Shown one piece after another: positions 7,775 to 61,074 of a stretch of 64,000 nucleotides of DNA. How positions within the stretch are numbered: position 1 is the first letter of the stretch; each line of letters starts with the position of its first letter. The translations under genes were made by a program, and so were the position numbers. Origin of the DNA: Escherichia phage vB_EcoP_SU10. The DNA is taken from the sequence record NC_027395.1; one strand, written 5' to 3'. The notes beneath the pieces are model-generated. The model worked only from the letters and a program-made list of their open reading frames with translations, made no database searches and was not told the DNA's origin.

Positions 7775-8557
7775 ATGGCAATTAATATGGGTATTGAAGA
7801 ACTAGACCCAATGGTTCAACAGGCTTCAAAGAAGTATGGGATTCCTGCTGCTTTGATTCATGCTGTAATCCAAAGAGAGTCTAGTGGTCGTCCTACAGTA
7901 GCCTCTGGAACTGGTCCTGTAGGTTTAATGCAGATCAGTAAAGGGTTGGCTAAAGACTACGGTTACAAACTAGAAGACAGACTTGACCCAGCAAAGAATA
8001 TTGATATGGGTGCTCGTTATATTCGAGATAACTTAAAGGCTTTTAATGGTGATGTTAAGAAAGCAATGGTTGGTTATTCAGAAGGTATTGGTGGAGCTAA
8101 GCAAATGTTCGCTGGTAAAAAGGGATTTACACCTCAAGCCCTTGACTCAATGAACAACAAACACTTTCTTCCTTTCTATGGTGATGCAGCTTCTCAGATT
8201 GCTAACCCTGTTGGAGCTTTGCAAGCTGTTCAACCAGTCAACCAGTTTAGTTCTGACTTACTAGACAGAGAGAAAGCCGCACAAGCTCCAACTCAGGCAG
8301 AGATTGCTGCTTCTAAGACAGGTGCTTTAGGCGGAAATCCAGTAGAGTTTTACTCTGATGAAGTGCAGGAAGGCGAAAACCAGAAACCTCAACAGAACTT
8401 TGGTAATGCAGTATTAGGGGTAGCTGCTATGCTTGCTGGTAAACCTCCCACTTCTCAAACAGTTCAGAGGGCAAGTGCACCACATGCAGCAGGTTCTCAG
8501 TACAGTCCACAAACACAAGCAGTGCTCAGACGTTTGGCTAGCATTGGTGTAAAGTAA
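7775..8557 (+). CDS. virion-associated lytic transglycosylase (SLT domain)
   Basis: QRESSGRPTVASGTGPVGLMQIS matches the catalytic E-S ... GLMQ motif of soluble lytic transglycosylases; RBS AAGGAGA. Confidence 0.7.
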   Translation: MAINMGIEELDPMVQQASKKYGIPAALIHAVIQRESSGRPTVASGTGPVGLMQISKGLAKDYGYKLEDRLDPAKNIDMGARYIRDNLKAFNGDVKKAMVGYSEGIGGAKQMFAGKKGFTPQALDSMNNKHFLPFYGDAASQIANPVGALQAVQPVNQFSSDLLDREKAAQAPTQAEIAASKTGALGGNPVEFYSDEVQEGENQKPQQNFGNAVLGVAAMLAGKPPTSQTVQRASAPHAAGSQYSPQTQAVLRRLASIGVK

Positions 8558-12299: not shown

Positions 12300-12308
12300 T
12301 AATGTATA
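12300..12308 (+). promoter_or_regulatory. TAATGTATA promoter-like nonamer upstream of the large virion protein gene
   Basis: Exact TAATGTATA 38 nt upstream of ATG 12347; the same nonamer recurs upstream of other genes in this window. Confidence 0.5.
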
Positions 12309-12346: not shown

Positions 12347-15300
12347 ATGGCTAACATTAAACCGTGGGAAGAAGCTTCCAAAGCTCCTGCGTATCTGAAT
12401 GCCTCTCCGGAGCAACAAGCTCAAATGAGAGAACAATATAAGGCAGCAGGTGGCTCTATTCCTGAGGAACAACCAGTAGCACAACCACAACAAGAAGAAC
12501 GTGGTGCTATAGGCGAGTTTGCTCAAGGTGTGTCAAATGCTCTTCAATCTGGTGGTGCAAATATTGCAGCTAGTGCTGCTAAAGGTATTGGTGGTTTAGT
12601 TGAGATTGGTGAGAATCTAGCTGGAGCACAGACTAGTTATGGTAAGCGTATCCAAGAGAACTCTCAGAACCTTCTGAAAGAACGTATGGATAAGATTGAG
12701 GATGGGATTGGCAAAACTGTTGGTCAGTATGCTGGCGTTGCTGGTGATATTGGTATGACTGTTGCTAACCCATTGGCTGCTGCTGCTATCATCGCAGGTC
12801 GTGAGACGGGTCGTGCATATGCAGACCAAACCCCTGAAGAGGGAGAAGATAAGTCTATTCTAGATGCAGCCTTAGTTGGTGGTGCTAACTATGCGGCCCA
12901 GAGAATCCTTCCGGGTGCTGTCGGCACAGCTGAGTCCACACTTGGACGTATTGGTCAGAACGTTGCCAGTAACGCAGTGGCTGGTGCTAAAGGTGGTGCT
13001 CTTGTTGGTGCTGCTGAAGTTCAGAACAAGTATGGGGATGACAATGATCTAGCTAAGACATTGGAAGGTGTTATCGAAGAGGGGGCTATGGGTGCTGCAT
13101 TTGGTGGTGCAGTTGGTGGGGTTCATGGTTTGATTAGCCGTCCGGATTCTGTTGTTTTCAAGAATACTCCAGAGTATGCGAAGACTGATATTGCTGCTGA
13201 TGACGAACTGATTCGTAGTGCTAAGAATGTTGATGAACTGAAAGAGGCTTACTCTAAAGCTGAAACTGCTAACGCTGCTTCTGCTCTGAACCTCCTCGAT
13301 GAGAATGGGTTCCGTATTACAGATGCTGTTGCTGTAGATTCTCCTGCTGCTCAGCGTATTCTTAACACTGACCAAGCTCGTGCTGAGAAAGCTGCTTCTG
13401 TTCAGAAAGAACACTCCAACATTCCGGGCCTTAATCCTTTAGCTTCTCCTGCTAAGACTCGTGGTAAAGCTTTCGCTGATAACGAGCACAACCAGAAACA
13501 GGCTGTTGCTATGAAGGATGCGATGGCTGACTATACCAAGGATAACACTAAAGCTCTTACAGATGTTTTAGATAACCTAGACCGTGAATTAACCTCTCTC
13601 CGAGCTTCTGGTGATTTTACTGGTAGTCCGATTGATATTAAGAATCGCACACAAGCTGACCGTGACTTCATTGATGCTTACAAGACTTTCTACAATGAAG
13701 CAAATCGATTCAAAGCTCGTGAAGGTGAAGACTTCAATAACTTTGTAGAGAAAGCTGCTGAACTACAGAAGATGGCTGATAATGTTTCTCCAGAGATGAA
13801 GAAAGCTATTGGCGGGTTGAAGAAACTGAAGGGTATGCCTGAAGGTTTTAATCCTATCCAAGATGCTTACACTCTGAACAATACAGCTAAATTTATGAGT
13901 AACCAAGATCGCGGTTGGACTTCCCTGACTGATGATGGTTTCCGTGAAGCTTCTTCTCCTAGCCTGGTAATGAACACTCTCGGTGCTGCTAAGTATGCTC
14001 TGAATCGCTTCTCTTCTCAGCGTGCTCGTTCTCAACGTGTTAAGCAACAAGAGTCTAACAGTGAAGCTATCCGCTCTCTGGCTCGTGGTGATTTGGAAGT
14101 TGCTCGTGCTAAATCTACTGCTAATGAAGCTCGTGCTAAGATGGAAGAAGAACCAGCTGTTGATGACATTAAATTTAAGACGCAAAATGATGTAGAAACC
14201 GAACCGGTTCGGGAGCCTTCTTCTAGTACTGTGACGGAAGAAAATCTTCCTTCTTCTGCTCCTCAAGAAACCCCTCTTACAGCTCGTGATTTAGTTGCGC
14301 AAAGACGTGCTATCCGTCAGGCTGAACAGCGTCGCGCTGAAGAAGAGGCAGCTGCTGCTCAAGAAGTTCCGGTTGAACAAGCTCCACAGGCTGAACCTCT
14401 CCCTGCTCGTAATCCTTTAGAGGAACGTCGTGCAATGGAACAGCAACGTGCTCAAGAAGAGGCCTCACAAGCTCCAGAACCAACCGTAGAGGAACCAACG
14501 GTCAAAGCTGAGCCATTACCTGCCCGTGCTCCTAAAGCTCCTAAGGAAGCTGTACAGGACGTTAAACCGGCAAGTGGTGTAGAACGTTTAGCTGCTATGT
14601 CTAGTGCTGCTCGTCAGGCTACTAAAGATCGTGCAGAACGCTTTGCTCGTTCTCTGTATTCTAAGGCTGCTAAGGCTAAAGCTACTGCTGAAAACTTCTT
14701 GGCTTATAAGGGCGATCCTAAGGAATTGATGCGTCGTATTCGTCAGGAAGATAATGCTATCAACACTGAACGTCATGAAGAAATGGCTCGTAACCAGCTG
14801 GCTTCTCAGCAAGGTATTGCTACTGCTAAGAACAACACTGTACGAACTAGTTTTGCTGAATGGGTTAAGGAACGTGGTCTGCCAGAAGACATTGCTACTA
14901 AGGCATTACGTGCTGAAGAGAAAGGTTTAGGTGGGAACGTAACTAACTTGGATAGTCTGAAACGTCGTGCTGAAAGGTTGTATCAGAAGCAGCGTGAGGA
15001 TGAGTTTGATAGATTATATCAACAAGCTCTAGAAGAGAACAAAGCTTTCGATAAGAAGGATGCTCCTAAACTGGTTGACCAGAAGAAAGAGCTTCAGTCT
15101 GAGATTGATGCTTTGATTGATTCAGAACCTTTACGTCCTGCTCAGAAAGATGCTATGCGTAAGCTGATGAATGATTTTGTAGATGGGAAGTTTAAATCTT
15201 CAGAGAAGGCTGGTAGGGAAGAGGCTTTGGAAGTTGGTCAGATGAAGGATATTTGGGATGGGTTTATTAACACCTATAACAGAGAAGTAAATGCCTTCAA

Positions 15301-26155: not shown

Positions 26156-28000
26156 TTAGTGTGTATGCATCCAGTTAAGTCCAATCTGACAATCAGATGC
26201 CAGAGGACATTCCATGTTCAGATACTCGCCAGCTTTCTTAACACAAAGCTCAGTGTGCTCTTTGAGTTTCTGTACATCATTACGGTTTACTGAGAATTGA
26301 CCTTCATCGTGCATATCAATTACCTTAGCACAACGAACCTTATCTTTCTCAATCCACTTGTTAAGGAACATCATAGCATATTTCATAACAACAGCACCAG
26401 CACATTGCAGGAGTGTGTTAAGGGCTTTATGAACCATAACCTTACCAGTGGCATCCCGTCTCATTGTAATCTTACGACCATCAACTCCAATCAAGTATCC
26501 TTGAGCAGCTTTCTCTGTCATACGATCAATGAGGATTGCAATACATGGGTTCTCTGCTAAGAAACGTGCTCGCATCACTGAACCTTCGTCAGCCCCACCA
26601 CCTACAATTGAACCAAGCTTAGCATCGCCAGCACCGTAGTTGAATGCATAGATAAACGTTTTAGCGTTGTCACGAGTAGGAAGACCAGCAAGTTTCTGGT
26701 TATGGGAGTGGATATCACCTTCAAGGAGAATATCACGATACATAATAGCAGAAGCTAAACCACGTTCTGCCAGAGCTTTCTTAGCTGGGTTGTTCTCTTC
26801 TATTGCCTCAGCAAGCATATCCCTACACTCTTTAATGAGGTAGTGAGCTAGCATACGAAGTTCAAGTCCAGAACCATCATACCCTAAGAACACTTCTTTA
26901 CCAGCGGGTATGTAATATTTGTAAGCACCTATAGGTTTGTCTTTCTTCCCCGGCTTACCTTTCTCGTAAATTACGTTAGTACCTTTTCGTATATAACAAC
27001 CATCAGGAACAACGTTAGTAATAACGAAAGGACGAGAGTGATCACTGTCTGAGTTATAGTCAGACTCAAACAAACTGCGACACTCGTGACCAAACAGACC
27101 ACGGGAGGGAATATTAACCACGATACGATGTTTGAATCGAAAAGTCGGCGTAGCGCAGCTGTTAGCTTCTGCCGAAAGTTTACCATCTTCGCGTTCCTTT
27201 GCTATAAGTCCACTGATAAGACCTAGCCTGTGAGCCGCTACAACGCGTCTCTTAAGCAAACTTCCGACACTCCCTAGCTCACCCCCTAACCCTTCTTCAA
27301 GAGTCTCCTCGAGGTTTGTAGGAGCTGTAGGCCACTTGTTTGATGTGGCTAGTGCTTTCTTAATCTCATCAAACGTTACAGGATTACGGCGATTAGGGTT
27401 CAACCCCAAACCAAATACGTAAGCCTTCATGTAATTCTTAGTCTTAAACCTGAAATGCTTTTCTAAGAACTTCTTAATATCAGCGTCAACCATCTCGGCT
27501 GTCTGCTTCTGCTTAGCATTGCCTCGCATCCAAGCAGTATACCATGCTTGGTATGTTCCATACTTTCTCATATCTTTCTTAATTTCGAAAGTATTCCAAG
27601 GCTTCTTAGACACGTTAAACTCTGGAGGAAGAAAGCCCTCATCCATAAGAGCTTCTTTAACTCGTGCATCTTTCGATGGGTCAAAGTCTACGTATTCAAC
27701 ACAGGTGAAAGCTCCACCAATATCTTCTCTCTTCAGCCCAACCCTATCACAATAGGCTTGAGGCCACTTCTGTAAAGCTCCAGACTTCTTAAACGGCTTC
27801 ATGTAAGTAGAGCCGTCTAATCTCATCTTAGGTAAGAGAGGAATCAACTCTCTGTCAATATTAACAATAATCTCTTTAAGGAGGTGAACATACCACCGAG
27901 CATTTCTTCGGTTGAAACTCACTCCGTGCTTTGCTTGCTTAGAGATTATATCAGCGACAGTCATCTCTGTCAAAAATGGAAGAGCGTCCGGGTTGCTCAC
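26156..28000 (-). CDS. DNA polymerase (family A, T7 gp5-like), polymerase-domain ORF
   Basis: KTFIYAFNYGAGDAKLG matches T7 KTFIYGFLYGAGDEKIG; C-terminal HDEGQF; N-terminus aligns to the region just after the T7 exonuclease domain. Confidence 0.85.
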   Translation of the reverse strand: MSNPDALPFLTEMTVADIISKQAKHGVSFNRRNARWYVHLLKEIIVNIDRELIPLLPKMRLDGSTYMKPFKKSGALQKWPQAYCDRVGLKREDIGGAFTCVEYVDFDPSKDARVKEALMDEGFLPPEFNVSKKPWNTFEIKKDMRKYGTYQAWYTAWMRGNAKQKQTAEMVDADIKKFLEKHFRFKTKNYMKAYVFGLGLNPNRRNPVTFDEIKKALATSNKWPTAPTNLEETLEEGLGGELGSVGSLLKRRVVAAHRLGLISGLIAKEREDGKLSAEANSCATPTFRFKHRIVVNIPSRGLFGHECRSLFESDYNSDSDHSRPFVITNVVPDGCYIRKGTNVIYEKGKPGKKDKPIGAYKYYIPAGKEVFLGYDGSGLELRMLAHYLIKECRDMLAEAIEENNPAKKALAERGLASAIMYRDILLEGDIHSHNQKLAGLPTRDNAKTFIYAFNYGAGDAKLGSIVGGGADEGSVMRARFLAENPCIAILIDRMTEKAAQGYLIGVDGRKITMRRDATGKVMVHKALNTLLQCAGAVVMKYAMMFLNKWIEKDKVRCAKVIDMHDEGQFSVNRNDVQKLKEHTELCVKKAGEYLNMECPLASDCQIGLNWMHTH

Positions 28001-30638: not shown

Positions 30639-30954
30639 GGTTCATATCTTTATGAATCCTGTAAACAGCTGTCGCCATACAAGCAACAGCCTCATTGTGT
30701 GGGAGATGCATTCCTGTAGAACCATCCCAATCTTTGAACTCATTGTCAAAGACTCCGGTAGGCTCTGGATACAGAGCTTGCAGCTCCACTAGATCATTAG
30801 CAACTTGTTGCCATTTATCATCAGACCAGATAGGGTCATCCAACCAGTAATACAAATAGGAATGGATGATCAATTGCCTTCTATGCCGATTGATTACTTC
30901 AGCGGGACTTATTTCACTTCCATTTGAAGTCCTAAATGTATTACTGTCAATCAT
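30625..30954 (-). CDS. protein resembling domain Ia of NAD-dependent DNA ligase
   Basis: HSYLYYWLDDPIWSDDKWQQVANDLVELQALYPEP parallels LigA N-terminal [34 protein letters not shown]. Confidence 0.3.
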   Translation of the reverse strand: MIDSNTFRTSNGSEISPAEVINRHRRQLIIHSYLYYWLDDPIWSDDKWQQVANDLVELQALYPEPTGVFDNEFKDWDGSTGMHLPHNEAVACMATAVYRIHKDMNHEVL

Positions 30955-41962: not shown

Positions 41963-43993
41963 TTAACCTCTATTCAATGAACATTTAGGGGAATTACAAT
42001 AAACTTGATTCATAGAACCAAGCGTACAACTTTCAGCATCGCGCCACGGAATCTGCTTAAAACACTCTGAGCAGTAGCCGAGGGTTGACCACATGGCTTT
42101 GGTGAAGTCAGTGCTTCGGTTTCCGTCGAAGCTGACAACAGTTTTGCGGAGAGTTGTTCGTGATTCAGGAAACACACCTGCTTTCTCAGCAGGTTCCTCC
42201 TTTTTTGGCTTAGTTGAGATTGCAAAAATACTGTTGCTACGTTTCTCAACATAAGCATCAACAACATCCTCCAGAGTGATGCCTGTCTGTTTCGCTGAGG
42301 AAGGTAATACAGTCATACGACCGATCATATCTTCAGTTACACGTAAAGCAAATTCAGGACGACGGGCGTTTGTTGTATCTGTTGCTTTAATCCAGATATA
42401 ACCATCTTTGATCGTAGCATTAGATACTTTCTTCTTTACTTCTACAGCGCAGACTTTACAGATATCTTCACCACGAAGACGACTGAGTTCCTCATCAAAC
42501 TCATTCTCTGTTTTAACTTCACCACAGATTTCACAAACACCAATAGGAGTCTCCTCCTCTTCTTCCTCTTTAGGTTTAGTCAAACCTTCCAGACATTCAG
42601 GATGCCAGTAGCACTGATATGCGAAGACTGCTTTAGGTGCATCCTTCCAATCAATGTGCTTATCACAACCACCACAATCGCCATGAGAGTGTGCTTCCCA
42701 GAATTTACGAGTGATAGTAACACCATTCTTGTTGACGAAACTATCATTCATATCAAAAGGGATATCATCATCAAAGTCAGCAGTAGTAGACTCAGGCTCC
42801 TTTTTCTCCAGAGATGGGTCAACAAAACGACCTGCTGTGATCACTAAGCGAACCATAGCATTAACTTCGGAGATGCAGGATACTGTCCCACGGTAAACAA
42901 TTTTAGGGTCTTTCAGGGCATCCTGATAAGCCTTAATGTCTACGTTATGAACATCACCTTCGATATACTCTTGAGACTTCTCATCGTAGATATAACCAAT
43001 CATCTTACCACGAGAAGGAACAGCACCAGCAGTTGCATAAGGAACAAACTCATGCGGAGTGATTTCCACAGTCATATCTCGGCGAATGTCAATGTTTCGA
43101 TCGCTTGCGATTTTGTTTTGACTTACCACTGCGTTTCTTCGACGAACGTCTGCCGCTGTCACTCCCGGCTTCGTGTCGTAAGGATTGCTTGTATTGCTTT
43201 TTGAGGAACTTTGATAGTTGCTTTGGCTGTAGTTGTTCGAGTAATAACTGCCCCAACGATTGGCTACCGTAAAAACCGGAAGCTCGTGGGCGACCTCTTC
43301 AACCAGAGTCATGCTGTTGTTTGACATATCAAAGATATATTCTGTACCAACTTTACATTCAAAATGCTCATCAATACGGTTCTTGTGAGATCTAGAACGC
43401 TTCAGAATCCACATCAACATGTCTTCTTCAGAAGCACCAAACCAATCTCTGTTACAACGTGCGAGGTGGAATGGACGCTCTTCGTTACGGATGATATGAA
43501 GACGGTTATCAGAAGCATCATGCCAGATTAAGGTGAAAGCACCATCCAGCTTTTGAATAGTCTCTGCTGCACCAATAGTGTTAATAGAGTGGCAGATGTT
43601 CTCACTGTCTACCTCGAAGTTTTTGCTGTCAGGTAACAGATCTTGGTCCATCAAGGTTCCATTATGAACCAGAGTGATGTTACCATGTTGGAAAGGATGG
43701 GCGTTCTTGGCGTTAACTGCACCTTTCGTTGCATGACGACTGTGACCAACAATCCATGAAGGTGCTACAGTGTAAGCTGTTTCACCAGTGGTGTGCTTCT
43801 TGTACTCATCTTGTAGGATGAATGCGAAAGAAGGAAGAGCTTCTTTATAAGTGAAGACTTCCTTAGTACTTTTACGCTGACCAAAGATACCGGAGGAATG
43901 TTGTCCTCGGAATACTCCAGCATAAAAGAGTTGGTTAAATACGTCTAAATCAGTGCTTGACAGATTACCGCCAGCTAATACGATGCCACAAAT
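41963..43993 (-). CDS. class II (Ntn) glutamine amidotransferase fused to a Cys-rich C-terminal domain; apparent non-canonical (ATT) start
   Basis: Hand translation upstream of track start gives (I)CGIVLAGGNL...FRGQHSSGIFG ... HATKGAVNAKNAHPFQHGNITLVHNGTL, like PurF/GlmS N-termini; C-terminus has several CxxC pairs. Confidence 0.7.
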   Translation of the reverse strand: MCGIVLAGGNLSSTDLDVFNQLFYAGVFRGQHSSGIFGQRKSTKEVFTYKEALPSFAFILQDEYKKHTTGETAYTVAPSWIVGHSRHATKGAVNAKNAHPFQHGNITLVHNGTLMDQDLLPDSKNFEVDSENICHSINTIGAAETIQKLDGAFTLIWHDASDNRLHIIRNEERPFHLARCNRDWFGASEEDMLMWILKRSRSHKNRIDEHFECKVGTEYIFDMSNNSMTLVEEVAHELPVFTVANRWGSYYSNNYSQSNYQSSSKSNTSNPYDTKPGVTAADVRRRNAVVSQNKIASDRNIDIRRDMTVEITPHEFVPYATAGAVPSRGKMIGYIYDEKSQEYIEGDVHNVDIKAYQDALKDPKIVYRGTVSCISEVNAMVRLVITAGRFVDPSLEKKEPESTTADFDDDIPFDMNDSFVNKNGVTITRKFWEAHSHGDCGGCDKHIDWKDAPKAVFAYQCYWHPECLEGLTKPKEEEEEETPIGVCEICGEVKTENEFDEELSRLRGEDICKVCAVEVKKKVSNATIKDGYIWIKATDTTNARRPEFALRVTEDMIGRMTVLPSSAKQTGITLEDVVDAYVEKRSNSIFAISTKPKKEEPAEKAGVFPESRTTLRKTVVSFDGNRSTDFTKAMWSTLGYCSECFKQIPWRDAESCTLGSMNQVYCNSPKCSLNRG

Positions 43994-49326: not shown

Positions 49327-49353
49327 TTAAAAAAGGACTCTCCGAAAAGAGTC
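49327..49353 (-). terminator. intrinsic terminator or attenuator upstream of the amidoligase operon
   Basis: - strand GACTCTT-TTCG-GAGAGTC then CTTTTTT, ~25 nt before the RBS of a small leader ORF. Confidence 0.5.
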
Positions 49354-49535
49354 AAGCTTTAAATACAAAAAGATATTACCCAATATCTGTGGATAACCTG
49401 CTCTTAAAATATCTATCCGACGGATGTTCGAGGAATATTCCTCTCCCTAGCATCGGCCCCATACGGGAAATATATTAAGATTAGGTTAGTTGAGTCAGAA
49501 TAACTCACATAGCCCTCCGAAGAAGGCTATAGATG

Positions 49536-50003
49536 TTACTCTATCTTAACTGAAGGACAATACTTCTCTTTCTTGCTGCGATACATAACAACAATCCAGT
49601 TTGAATCACGACGCTCTTTCTTACGTCGTTTCTTTTCAGCACGAGTTTCATATGTGCTAGTTCGGTGGTCACGATATATTCCACGAAGTTCATAAAATGC
49701 CCAACCACCACCAAACACTACACCAGCCAAAGCAGCCAAAGATGAGGCACCAAGAGCAGGGGCAGCGAACCATGTCCACCAGTAAAAGGTTGACACGTCG
49801 TTGTGCCCGAGAAGTGTCCCACCTACTCCAGTAAGTGCCGCACATATAACAGATAAGAATCCAGACAGTATAACAAAACGCAAAACTGTTCGCCAGAAGT
49901 ATTCACAAAAGTTAGTCATGTTGTCCCAATAGGAATCAGAGAGACTTGACGTAGCTTTGTTGAATCTGTGCAACCATCCGTTCTTATTAACCTTAATCAT
50001 CAT
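49536..50003 (-). CDS. membrane protein
   Basis: Several hydrophobic helices and basic C-terminal tail. Confidence 0.45.
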   Translation of the reverse strand: MMIKVNKNGWLHRFNKATSSLSDSYWDNMTNFCEYFWRTVLRFVILSGFLSVICAALTGVGGTLLGHNDVSTFYWWTWFAAPALGASSLAALAGVVFGGGWAFYELRGIYRDHRTSTYETRAEKKRRKKERRDSNWIVVMYRSKKEKYCPSVKIE

Positions 50004-51220: not shown

Positions 51221-51532
51221 CTATTTAAGTTTGAGGCTAATATTAAGGTGCATACATGCCCTGTTCTGTACAGCAGCATAACTTCTACCAAGCATGTCAG
51301 CCATTCTCTGAATAGACATGAACCCAGCATTACGGATAAGGAACTGGTCTTCTTCTTTAGACCACTTAACTCGGATTGAAGCTCTTGATATTCCGAATTT
51401 AGTGCAAGCTGTGTTAACTGCATTCTCCGTTACATTCATAATCTGAGCAACTTCTTGAACCGAGTACTCTTTGATTAGTCTCCGAAGATTTTCAATCTGT
51501 ATAGGAGTCCATATAGTTCTTCGTGCTTTCAT
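51221..51532 (-). CDS. DNA-binding regulator with duplicated helix-turn-helix
   Basis: Internal repeat SVQEVAQIMNVTENAVNTA / SIQRMADMLGRSYAAVQNRA. Confidence 0.5.
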   Translation of the reverse strand: MKARRTIWTPIQIENLRRLIKEYSVQEVAQIMNVTENAVNTACTKFGISRASIRVKWSKEEDQFLIRNAGFMSIQRMADMLGRSYAAVQNRACMHLNISLKLK

Positions 51533-52027
51533 ACATCCTCCAGTTAATTGTTAAAATTATCAGGGGAGTACACTAGCTCTGGGCCACGCTGTAGATATCG
51601 GCCTACCTTCCACAGCTAATCAGCTAATGTACTCTCCTAATAGTTTATGAATAGGGGGAGGGGACGAATCCTCCCTTATCCTATTAATTAATATTGCATG
51701 TAAGATCTAACAATCGGTTGCCTTTGTAGGAATAGGTGTAAAGCCAATCCAGCACTAAACTCCCGCCCCCTTAGTGGGCTGGGTTATTAAAGGGTAACGC
51801 CCTTATGGGCTAGTTACATGAATGTTAGTTTGATAGGAGATCTGAAGTCCTATCTCAAAGGACTCTCGTAAGAATCCTTCACGATATTACTTATTCATTT
51901 TTCGTCGGCTATCTCTCCAAGCCAACCAAGTGTAGGTTTTCAACTCTTCTAAACTTTCTGGAGTGAATAGGTATTCTTTGAAGGTGTCACTAAACCACTC
52001 TAAAAATTCTTCAGTCATAATAACATC

Positions 52028-53328: not shown

Positions 53329-53404
53329 TGGTGCGCCCTACAGGACTCGAACCTGTAACCAATAGCTTAGAAGGCTACTGCTCTATCCATTGAGCTAAGA
53401 GCGC
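53329..53404 (-). tRNA. tRNA-Arg (anticodon UCU)
   Basis: Hand-folded cloverleaf: acceptor GCGCTCT/AGGGCGC, D-arm GCTC-AATGGATA-GAGC, anticodon loop CTTCTAA, T-arm ACAGG-TTCGAGT-CCTGT, encoded CCA. Confidence 0.8.
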
Positions 53405-54273: not shown

Positions 54274-54302
54274 AAAACAACAAAGGCCGCCCGAAGGCAG
54301 CC
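54274..54302 (-). terminator. intrinsic terminator (strand-specific, UUCG loop)
   Basis: - strand GGCTGCC-TTCG-GGCGGCC then TTTGTTGTTTT. Confidence 0.55.
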
Positions 54303-54307
54303 TCTCT

Positions 54308-54559
54308 TTATTGACTAACACCACGAATCAGATGATTCTGTAGCATTTCATCTTCTGCATTATACAGGAATGCAAACATCAACTCCTTAGCCACATCTCT
54401 TGAGCAATTAAGACACTTAGAGATTTGCGTTAGTTGCATGTTGCGTTCTGTGTGTTCCATCAAGGCAATGCGAATGATCTCTCGCATACCTATCACATGG
54501 GTTGTCTTAACCGGCATAGGTCCAATTGCCTTGTTTGTTACGGATGGCTGACATTGCAT
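54308..54559 (-). CDS. hypothetical protein
   Basis: 83-aa ORF. Confidence 0.35.
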   Translation of the reverse strand: MQCQPSVTNKAIGPMPVKTTHVIGMREIIRIALMEHTERNMQLTQISKCLNCSRDVAKELMFAFLYNAEDEMLQNHLIRGVSQ

Positions 54560-55005
54560 GAATCCAGAAGCCTTCCAGTTTCAGAGCACCATTAGCTACT
54601 GCATCCATACGTTCAGGGCGGTTCATACGTTTGGTTGATACTTTCATACCTATCTCTCTTTGTTAGTGGAGGCATTATTGCCAGTTGATATAAGGGATAG
54701 CCCTAGTCAGTAGGCTAATCCTGACCGCGTACTCATTGCCGACCTTCTCTGCCTAAGAGTTCAGGTTCTAGAGCTATCTCTTATTCCAACTGGTGAAGAC
54801 TCCCTACCCCTAGGAAGTCTCCTGAATCCCAAACCAATATGTACCCCTACATATTAGAAAGTCTTTCGAAAATTAACAGGTTTTAGTCTAGCACCGGATG
54901 TTCGAGCAAGCTCTCCCTAGCGGTGTGGCATATGCCTGAATTAATAAGTTAATGAGGAACACCCTCACATAGCCCTCTGATAAACACAAGGGCTATAAGT
55001 CGGTG

Positions 55006-55224
55006 TTACTTTTGGGATAAACACAGATCAGGACGTGGCATAACAGTGGTTGATAAACCGAAGACTTCAACAGAACCACTGTTCAGATCGGCGGCCTTAC
55101 ACAAACCGTCAGGAGTTTTATCTTCTAACATCAGCCAGAAACGTCTATCGTAAGAGAAAACATCACCACTTTTAACATCTTCTGCATTTGCATATTTAGG
55201 ATAATCAACTACTTTAATTTCCAT
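55006..55224 (-). CDS. small early protein, GDVF-motif paralog family
   Basis: VKSGDVFSYDRRFWLMLEDKTPDGLCKAADLNSG. Confidence 0.45.
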   Translation of the reverse strand: MEIKVVDYPKYANAEDVKSGDVFSYDRRFWLMLEDKTPDGLCKAADLNSGSVEVFGLSTTVMPRPDLCLSQK

Positions 55225-60155: not shown

Positions 60156-60184
60156 ATTATGAATCATGTTGTTTTCGCTGTCAA
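60156..60184 (-). promoter_or_regulatory. sigma70-type early promoter
   Basis: - strand TTGACA, 17-nt spacer, CATAAT, with upstream A tract. Confidence 0.55.
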
Positions 60185-60313
60185 CCACTTTTTAATCTTT
60201 TTTCGTCGTTCCCGCTATTGGGAGGATATATCAATCAGCTTTATTTGATTGAAGACTAAGCGGTGATGCTTATCTTATGATTCATATTGTTAAAGAGCGG
60301 TTACTACATTTAC

Positions 60314-60341
60314 AGCTTAACACATCGTGTTAGCTTGTCAA
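60314..60341 (-). promoter_or_regulatory. sigma70-type promoter candidate (weak -10)
   Basis: - strand TTGACA, 16 nt, TAAGCT. Confidence 0.3.
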
Positions 60342-60639
60342 CTCTTTTTATCATCTTCTTTTAATTCCTTTCCCTTATCTCGCGTGAATCTATGCGAAAG
60401 GGCAAGATGATAAGTCTGATTTGTCTTTTAGGAATCTAGTGCGCTTTCAAGCATTGACCATTTGAAAGTATCGAACAAATGAGGCTTATTTTGTTGCTCA
60501 TCGTCCGCCTGTTCACGTATGAATCAGGAATCAATTCTAGTGGTCAACTAAGCGCCTTATAGTAATGACGTTCCCGCCACCTGTAAGACAAATCATATTT
60601 TTAAAGAGCTGGATGTTTCACGTCATCGCTGACTATGCT

Positions 60640-60668
60640 CACTATATATCAGGCTGTTTTCGGTGTCA
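60640..60668 (-). promoter_or_regulatory. sigma70-type early promoter
   Basis: - strand TTGACA, 17-nt spacer, TATAGT, upstream AAAAAGAG. Confidence 0.6.
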
Positions 60669-61074
60669 ATACTCTTTTTAAGAATATTTTCACTTTCTAG
60701 CCTGATTTTTAAAGAGCGTAGCACTTTCATTGTGCGTCTTACCGTCGGTATTCCTACCGCTCCCCGTTGAAGCCTTTTACCGTGATGCTAATCACCTATC
60801 GAGGAGTTTTTACTACTTGTTGTTACTTACTGCTTACTACGGGATTCATATTACTATACAGGAAAACCCTGTCAATACCCTTTTTTCAAATTATTTTATA
60901 TCTCACTGTTTTATAAAGGAATTTATTTTAGAGATGACAGGAACTACAAAGAAATCAGAAGAGAGAGGAACGGGAGCGCGTGATACATCATAGGAAACAG
61001 CCTGTAAAGCAATAATAAGCGGCCTATAACGCATCACAACGAGCTAAAAGGGAGTAAGGTATACAATCACCTTA

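Follow-up and report, generated by a model that had tools for sequence, protein, structure and literature searches.

The window analysed here is the whole stretch of 64,000 nucleotides from Escherichia phage vB_EcoP_SU10 (NC_027395.1). Between 47 and 58 kb of it every gene lies on the minus strand, and we therefore read the element described below on that strand. The 1.2 kb around the element is 88-98% identical to phiEco32-like coliphages of the genus Kuravirus, subfamily Gordonclarkvirinae (97.9% in EK5, 88.3% in phiEco32). In phiEco32 gene numbering, one copy of the element (copy 2) lies between genes 113 and 112 and the other (copy 1) between genes 91 and 90. The region belongs to the early class, which is transcribed leftwards by host sigma70 RNA polymerase from promoters at the right end (PMC4281155, PMC8948821), and strong sigma70-like promoters are found on the minus strand of the window at 60184-60875 and 63350.

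The first gene past copy 2 is a homolog of gene 112 (Table 1), the product of which is 47% identical over 32 aa to gp135 of Salmonella phage 7-11. A conserved motif, KRMNRPxxMxxxxNGALK, is shared by gp112 of Kuravirus and its 7-11 homolog, while searches of gp112 for an N-type arginine-rich motif or a family annotation found neither. Because this short ORF is a conserved gene, the non-coding gap that holds copy 2, given as 445 bp in the first-pass annotation, is actually 358 nt long (54648-55005). On its other side the neighbouring gene varies between phages, being a homolog of gene 113, a homolog of the 'helicase'-like gene 116 or an unrelated ORF, and all of these upstream genes end at the TAA within AGTAAC (window 55006-55010; Bas92 8001-8005; record L002 7707-7716).

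A two-copy module

The element is a module of about 125 nt that is present twice in the window, at 55010-54888 and 49540-49414, both on the minus strand, with no further copies. Three exact blocks, GAGGGCTATGTGAG (14 nt), GCTAGGGAGAG (11 nt) and CTCGAACATCCG (12 nt), are restricted to the two copies, where their order and strand are identical. With R1, a covariance model made from the relatives' sequences, copy 2 (54888-55010(-)) reached 135.4 bits and copy 1 (49414-49540(-)) 111.5 bits; the best of the other genuine candidates in the 64-kb window had 10 bits. The exact blocks and the R1 scores at both sites bear out the earlier proposal of a true second copy of a conserved non-coding element. 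The extent given for it at the time, 54895-54996, covers most of the module and misses about 14 nt of the H1 5' strand and about 7 nt at the 3' end.

Table 1 Features of the two copies and their surroundings (window coordinates).
Feature	Position	Strand	Basis or remark
H1, long hairpin of copy 2	54956..55010	-	Single-sequence fold and covariation
H1 outer stem	55007-55002 with 54963-54958	-	
H1 inner stem, 10 bp	54997-54988 with 54977-54968	-	
A/U-rich spacer, about 20 nt	54937..54955	-	Alignments; most variable part of copy 2
Hmid, 3-bp hairpin with conserved RUAU loop (here GGC-AUAU-GCC)	54927..54936	-	
H2, conserved core	54891..54926	-	
H2 stem P1	54925-54921 with 54896-54892	-	
H2 invariant 7x7 internal loop, CUAGGGA opposite GAACAUC	54920-54914 and 54903-54897	-	
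H2 stem P2, GAG/CUC, with CUUG loop	54913-54911 with 54906-54904	-	
H3, 10-bp hairpin, GGGG tetraloop, apex GTAGGGGTAC	54834..54857	-	RNAalifold
H4, 12-bp hairpin, GGGG tetraloop; CTAGGGGTAGGGAG forms apex and 3' arm	54795..54822	-	RNAalifold
Remaining leader: long-range stem H5, hairpin H6 (GGCAAUAAUGCC), gene 112 RBS	54648..54794	-	RNAalifold
Gene 112 homolog, 46 aa, first gene past copy 2	54507..54647	-	phrog_13305, E 7e-37
Intrinsic terminator closing element, leader and gene 112 (plus gene 111)	54282..54305	-	Terminator scan
tRNA	53332-53404		Sole Rfam 15 family detected
Copy 1 (H1, Hmid, H2)	49414..49540	-	R1 111.5 bits and alignment
P0 3' strand, copy 1	49390..49413	-	MFE fold, z = -5.2; RNAalifold including 7-11-type sequences
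Strong intrinsic terminator	49336..49353	-	About 60 nt past copy 1, about 15 nt before gene 90 RBS

Anatomy of the module

On the gene-sense strand the module has three parts, with H1 followed by the A/U-rich spacer, then Hmid and then H2. In H1, a small internal loop or bulges separate the outer stem of 6-9 bp from the 10-bp inner stem, which carries a variable apical loop, and the hairpin pairs over 21-23 bp in copy 1 and over 10 + 1 + 6-8 bp, with an internal loop, in copy 2. In both copies the TAA stop codon of the upstream gene (55008-55006 in copy 2) falls within the conserved 5' edge of H1, AGUAAC. The outer stem alternates between C-G, U.G and U-A pairs and the inner stem between C-G and U.G. 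The length of H1 as a whole is that of the duplexes at T7-type RNase III sites (about two helical turns, at least 20 bp, intergenic in a polycistronic mRNA). As an intrinsic terminator H1 was rejected: the sequence past it, GUGAGGGUGUUCC or GUGAGUUAUUCU, contains no U run, and the terminator scan left the hairpin unflagged.

The stem of Hmid alternates between GGC/GCC, GCC/GGC and CCC/GGG around a constant loop, and directly adjoins H2. In H2, the internal loop (consensus CUAGGGM / RAACAUC) lies between two variable stems, P1, of 5-7 bp across sequences, and P2, which is GAG/CUC plus 0-2 extra pairs and carries a free, hypervariable loop (AUAU, ACAC, ACAA, ACAG, GUAA, GUGU). Known loop motifs were compared by eye, and none of the K-turn, sarcin-ricin and loop-E motifs fits the internal loop. 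A pairing of GGAUGUUC in the H1 3' strand with the loop strand GAACAUCC in copy 2 was also discarded, as it is missing in copy 1, in phage 7-11 and in the divergent homolog L171 described below.

Copy 1 has a further helix, P0, in which UUAAGA and AGGUUA pair with UCUUAA (49488-49483) and UAACCU (49480-49475). This helix takes its 5' strand from what appears as the spacer in copy 1 and the 7-11-type homologs, and it closes a three-way junction with Hmid and H2 in both the MFE fold and the RNAalifold prediction for copy 1. Changes from A-U to U-A in P0 separate the two phage families. A P0-type closing helix was sought in copy 2 and was unsupported there; copy 2 lacks P0 and is always followed by the leader, gene 112 (sometimes gene 111) and a terminator. 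The same terminator comes directly after gene 112 in Bas92 and 4E8, and is present as an annotation in WFI101126 and 4E8.

The intrinsic terminator after copy 1 lies about 30-50 nt from P0, with an extra hairpin in between in Kuravirus, and is kept and covaries across families (UUCG versus GAAA loop). The next gene starts about 15-40 nt past its U tract, so that there is no room for a promoter. A sigma70-like match is present in the spacer of copy 1, with its -10 inside the P0 5' strand; since this is the only sigma70-like -10 match of copy 1, the copy-1 transcript must originate further upstream. The string TTATCCACA, a perfect DnaA box, was observed at 49388-49396 (-), just 3' of copy 1, and is also kept in phage 7-11 (about 30730-30740 of its record). 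Its overlap with the 3' strand of P0 (AGGUUA) may account for this conservation, and DnaA boxes are not enriched in the window.

The TAGGG motifs and the gene 112 leader

Three TAGGG strings had been pointed out in the gap, and all were located on the minus strand as claimed: CTAGGGAGAG at 54920-54911, GTAGGGGTAC at 54850-54841 and CTAGGGGTAGGGAG at 54813-54800. Across the window TAGGGR is not enriched (40 found, 45 expected), and four copies fall within 119 nt on one strand, where about 0.04 would be expected (Poisson, P ~1e-7 per 119-nt stretch). A TAGGGA/TAGGGG pair at 27271-27288 lies within a 614-aa ORF and was attributed to chance.

RNAalifold, applied to the whole 358-nt gap in 12 phages, predicted 82 pairs, 15 of them with compensatory changes. 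In this fold CTAGGGAGAG supplies the 5' side of the internal loop in H2, and an invariant UAGGGGUA with a GGGG tetraloop forms the apex of both H3 and H4, the stems of which covary (alignment pairs 160-183 of H3 as AU/GC/GU and CG/UG/UA; several of the alignment pairs 195-222 of H4 with double changes). H5 carries a lineage-specific insert of about 52 nt. As the TAGGG motifs sit in the loops of H2, H3 and H4, they are loop elements of one structured leader (55010-54648) that ends at the gene 112 RBS, and the suggestion that they belong to the functional unit of the element holds, through the H2 loop and the apical loops of H3 and H4. Their proposed role as binding sites on DNA, for instance for the HTH protein encoded at 51221-51532 or another phage protein, is not supported: the stems are compensatory, the G.U pairs exist on the sense strand only, the motifs occupy loops, and they are not enriched.

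A folded RNA

We collected both copies from 16 further phage records and from IMG/VR contigs. When 31 distinct sequences were aligned with MAFFT alone, 99.9% of the cells of a 23-pair structure could pair, compared with 34-47% when the 3' partners were slid by 1-3 columns, and six pairs showed double-sided changes. With the distant relatives included (40 distinct sequences, in an alignment that was fitted to the model and so leans toward the structure), pairing was 99.2% compared with 32-47% in the slid controls, and 11 of the 21 pairs had compensatory changes. Four of the six P1 pairs did, one of them occurring as C-G, U-A, A-U and G.U. Many of the intermediates are G.U, as in the series C-G, U.G, U-A in H1 and P1; as these would be A.C mismatches on the plus strand, the folded strand is the gene-sense transcript. 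The element is a folded RNA within the early mRNA and not a DNA site for protein binding.

Nor is the element coding, since the frames of the two copies differ and the P2 loop is hypervariable. ORFs do cross it (54888-54989 and 49413-49508), with the shared blocks in different frames, and in a micro-ORF the changes in the P2 loop would be non-synonymous. 'Hypothetical proteins' are annotated across the element in several GenBank records; the small ones of the BASEL phages Bas88 (8024-8191), Bas89 (8022-8123) and Bas92 (8022-8123) are probably spurious, because the frames are not kept between copies. A sigma70 or gp36 promoter within the element was likewise rejected. The alignments contain no -35/-10 hexamers in the spacer that are conserved between phages, in copy 2 or in 7-11, P0 requires the candidate -10 region to be transcribed, and the gp36 promoter motif TAATGTATA (tAATGTAtA) is absent at the element, its exact occurrences being at 12300, 22907, 22979 and 29699.

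Distribution

Every Gordonclarkvirinae locus that was examined has two copies, except EcoN5, which has three. Copy 2 is 85-100% identical in 97 phage records and is better kept than its flanks; in EP335 the identity is 95.5% for the element, compared with 83.1% for the 1.2-kb region. In a phage of another family, Salmonella phage 7-11 of the Grimontviridae, R1 detected one clear homolog (71.9 bits, E 1e-16), and it detected more in contigs and records of 7-11-like phages. The position of the homolog in 7-11 itself, downstream of a phi32_92-like membrane protein, is syntenic with that of copy 1, and homologs of this type are always followed by the conserved intrinsic terminator. Over the copy-1 module, 7-11 and Kuravirus share about 70% nucleotide identity, compared with 30-36% for the flanking proteins. 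Both gp112 and the HTH protein, which has a double HTH, are co-conserved with the RNA in 7-11. In the 7-11 record (42846-43227) the gene for gp135 overlaps the 3' end of a gene for a small zinc-ribbon protein, which matches 'anti-termination protein Q-like' (phrog_6060, E 3e-16).

A far more divergent homolog (L171) was found in contig JBOFGJ010000684.1, binned as a Flavobacterium sp. MAG. It keeps CUAGGGC, AAACAUC, GAG/CUC and the RUAU loop exactly, while its H1 and P1 have wholly different sequences with complementarity retained. The strands of the H2 loop are unchanged, within the consensus, from Kuravirus to 7-11 and L171. The L171 contig also encodes an Srd-like 'decoy of host sigma70', along with numerous small ORFs ending in ...EENE, and it looks like a phage early region that was probably mis-binned; a contig binned as Peptococcaceae (L174) is likewise Kuravirus-like.

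Rfam 15, searched with gathering and permissive (E<=10) thresholds, gave no match over either copy or the leader, and BLAST against 5,426 E. coli genomes gave no match and no sign of mimicry of a host RNA. A loose pattern, CTAGGGAN{7,30}GAACATC, retrieved 120 chance loci from IMG/VR, and 100 of these (878 kb of unrelated viral contigs containing both loop strings) were reused as a negative control, in which the best R1 score was 18 bits (E 0.09). Stricter pattern scans of viral, metagenome and genome collections returned, beyond the known relatives, only 7-11-type contigs and L171 as genuine homologs. Pattern-only matches in high-GC soil contigs lacked P1 and were rejected. In the 7-11 gap, tRNA-like strings were checked with ARAGORN, which did not confirm them.

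Possible function

The module is a previously undescribed structured RNA family, strongly covarying and absent from Rfam. Neither the 14 internal-loop nucleotides of H2 nor its closing pairs vary across two phage families, the core amounting to about 20 invariant nucleotides in all. A multi-helix RNA with invariant loops, kept better than its flanks, placed in an early transcript and accompanied by terminators, points to a specific macromolecular partner and to a role in transcription or in the fate of the RNA. Among the roles considered, the most likely, to which we give a probability of roughly 30%, is that of an RNA recognised by a protein or by RNA polymerase and governing read-through of terminators.

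Modelled on the systems compared below, such a mechanism would run as follows. The two paralogous modules of about 125 nt are transcribed within the leftward, sigma70-driven early polycistronic mRNA, and H2 together with Hmid would form the recognition surface. Two kinds of partner are proposed: host RNA polymerase during elongation, by analogy with HK022 put RNA, or a small phage protein that is co-conserved with the RNA and acts on the polymerase, by analogy with lambda N and nut. Recognition would enable the polymerase to pass the intrinsic terminator after each copy. The roughly 20-bp duplex of H1 at the upstream stop codon would most likely serve as a processing hairpin or one protecting a 3' end, of the T7 RNase III-site type, and the copy 2 module is joined to a further leader of 250 nt, with its GGGG-loop hairpins before gene 112. 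Recognition of the loops by a protein partner on the RNA is possible. We tentatively suggest that the module represents a class of RNA for processive antitermination that is new and has no relation to put or nut. Its H2 helix may dock on E. coli/Salmonella RNA polymerase, alone or with gp112, and so carry the early transcription of phiEco32-like and 7-11-like phages past their intrinsic terminators.

Evidence bearing on read-through is found on both sides. In its favour, copy 1 and the 7-11-type homologs are each followed by the same covarying terminator, gp112 and the HTH protein are kept along with the RNA in 7-11, and in that phage only two early promoters, at the far right end, were validated, an undefined antitermination strategy being judged 'highly likely' (PMC8948821). 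Against it, three strong terminators (58311-58284, 56982-56965 and 56897-56878, all on the minus strand, with two arranged in tandem) separate copy 2 from the three consensus-like early sigma70 promoters (60156-60875, (-)), with no element before them, and therefore either read-through or internal promoters must exist without this RNA. The weak match at 56294-56267 (-) would be an example of such an internal promoter. L171 also speaks against read-through, having no terminator within about 1.3 kb downstream, as does the difference in architecture from put described below.

Both phiEco32 and 7-11 are models for the control of host RNA polymerase by a phage (gp36 sigma factor, gp79), and the passage of their early transcripts through several terminators is unexplained in the literature searched. 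For this missing mechanism the RNA is a concrete, mutable candidate; at the least, it would be a new RNA that acts in processing or regulation. If the read-through interpretation is true, it would supply the 'undefined antitermination strategy' postulated for 7-11 (PMC8948821).

Two antitermination systems and the RNase III sites of T7 and T3 offer the closest comparisons. HK022 put RNA suppresses termination in cis without protein factors, acting through the zinc-binding domain of the RNA polymerase beta' subunit. As here, HK022 has two paralogous copies per genome, formed of irregular stem-loops with non-canonical pairs whose stems differ between copies by compensatory changes (PMC9378689), and they are carried by an early transcript of the host polymerase, with the promoter upstream and terminators downstream (here 54305-54282 and 49353-49336). 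Nevertheless, we found no homology of sequence or structure: with filters off, the best R1 score in the whole HK022 genome was 7.5 bits (E 2). In addition, put is about 70 nt long and made of two abutting stems (PMC9378689), whereas the module is about 125 nt long, with three hairpins and a variable spacer, and both of its copies lie in one transcription direction.

The likeness to lambda nutL and the N leader lies in a conserved RNA site that occurs twice per genome, once in a long leader before a tiny early gene, with a terminator after the small gene and an adjacent long duplex suited to RNase III. However, the alignments contain no boxA- or boxB-like consensus within the module. The boxA consensus of lambda (CGCUCUUUA) is absent; its closest approximation, CCUCAUUAAC, is without the conserved G and varies within copy 2, and in copy 1 the corresponding nucleotides are paired in P0. 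A boxB-type stem of 5 bp with a pentaloop is missing as well. Like H1, the RNase III sites of T7 and T3 are hairpins between genes, about 20 bp long, interrupted by small bulges or internal loops and placed right after stop codons, and they share with the module a sigma70-driven polycistronic early transcript and similarity in sequence among the sites. In T7 and T3, however, there is one site per gene and here only two or three, and the most conserved part of the module is the separate helix with the invariant loop rather than the long duplex.

The comparison with T7 leads to the main rival of read-through, which we consider possible though somewhat doubtful, namely that the module serves RNA processing and stability. 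RNase III would cut H1, or RNase E the A/U-rich spacer, leaving the upstream mRNA with a protective 3' hairpin and the downstream mRNA starting with a protective Hmid and H2. This analogy is consistent with the near-continuous duplex of 20-23 bp in H1, which has small bulges and begins at the stop codon, with the A/U-rich and least conserved spacer of copy 2, and with the T7-like setting of an early polycistronic transcript from tandem strong sigma70 promoters (PMC4281155). A terminator hairpin ends each module, so that a processed gene 112 mRNA would be capped by structure at both ends. However, generic protection of ends fails to explain why 14 loop nucleotides stay invariant across families while the stems change, the 'spacer' of copy 1 is not single-stranded, being the 5' strand of P0, and the element is present at only two or three of more than 40 intergenic junctions.

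It appears unlikely that the module is a translational operator, bound through H2 and the GGGG hairpins by a protein such as gp112 in an autoregulatory loop, or a decoy that titrates a host RNA-binding protein. Such a model would account for the display of several G-rich motifs in loops, for the position of copy 2 as the 5' leader of gene 112, to which it is always linked at the Gordonclarkvirinae loci, and for the co-conservation of gp112 in 7-11. It would also fit the RNAalifold pairing of UCCUC, after H1, with GAGAGA of the gene 112 RBS, although these pairs never vary. In 7-11, however, the gp112 homolog lies about 12 kb away from the lone element, which precedes an endolysin gene, and copy 1 precedes an unrelated gene. 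Binding of CsrA needs GGA, which is absent from two of the four G-rich motifs, and the element has no similarity to any E. coli sequence.

A riboswitch-like attenuator, in which the P0-Hmid-H2 junction would be an aptamer and the expression platform the terminator in copy 1 or the RBS pairing in copy 2, seems to us quite improbable. The pattern of invariant loop nucleotides, covarying stems and free apical loops is aptamer-like, and the three-way junction and the intrinsic terminator are conserved as a unit across families, with downstream platforms that differ between the copies. Nevertheless, P0 and the terminator do not overlap, and no convincing alternative pairing was seen: a search for a conserved, mutually exclusive pairing between them yielded only AAGAGC of the P0 3' strand against the terminator arm GCUCUU, a match of 4-6 bp that is not kept in 7-11. 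Moreover, no Rfam riboswitch matched, and the genes that would be regulated encode tiny proteins of unassigned function.

Least probable, and very unlikely in our view, is a role at the DNA level, as operators of the HTH protein, an origin of replication, or a cassette for promoters or PeSL-like recombination: the change of upstream gene right up to the 5' edge, the copy-1 duplication in EcoN5, the exchange of H1 loop types, the DnaA-box string by copy 1 that 7-11 keeps and the sigma70-like match in the copy-1 spacer could be taken to suggest it, but the compensatory changes pass through G.U pairs that are mismatched on the other strand and so reflect selection on RNA, the candidate -10 of copy 1 is in the P0 5' strand that must be transcribed, the spacer hexamers are not kept in copy 2 or 7-11, TAGGGR and DnaA boxes are unenriched, and any use in recombination may follow from the conservation as a side effect, without being the selected function.

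Recombination and a diverged relative

PeSL cassettes of T4-type phages, attributed to work by Arbiol and colleagues in 2010, are said to be repeated, conserved intergenic cassettes among small variable early genes, reportedly defined by a strong sigma70 promoter and a terminator stem-loop, and breakpoints in gene content reportedly coincide with the cassette edge. The element is like them in being repeated and intergenic, with a break in gene content at its edge, and unlike them in having no conserved promoter and in the selection on a multi-helix RNA fold. In Suseptimavirus the two copies have exchanged H1 loop types, and in EcoN5 a tandem duplication of about 1.5 kb comprises copy 1 and neighbouring genes (copies at 13103-13229 and 14621-14747 of its record). 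From the break in gene content at the 5' edge, the swapped H1 loops and the EcoN5 duplication, recombination probably occurs at the element; in our view it would be a consequence of the conservation and not its cause.

A diverged relative of the module occupies another long non-coding gap, the third, at 51533-51886 (-), which precedes the HTH gene. This relative scores only 10.2 bits with R1 and lacks the H2 core. It has an AGTAAT stop-codon edge with an 8-bp hairpin, an ACTAAC spacer and a GCCC-AUAA-GGGC mini-hairpin, and two further hairpins, one long and G-rich in its loop (UAAGGGGGCGGGAG), the other a UUCG hairpin.
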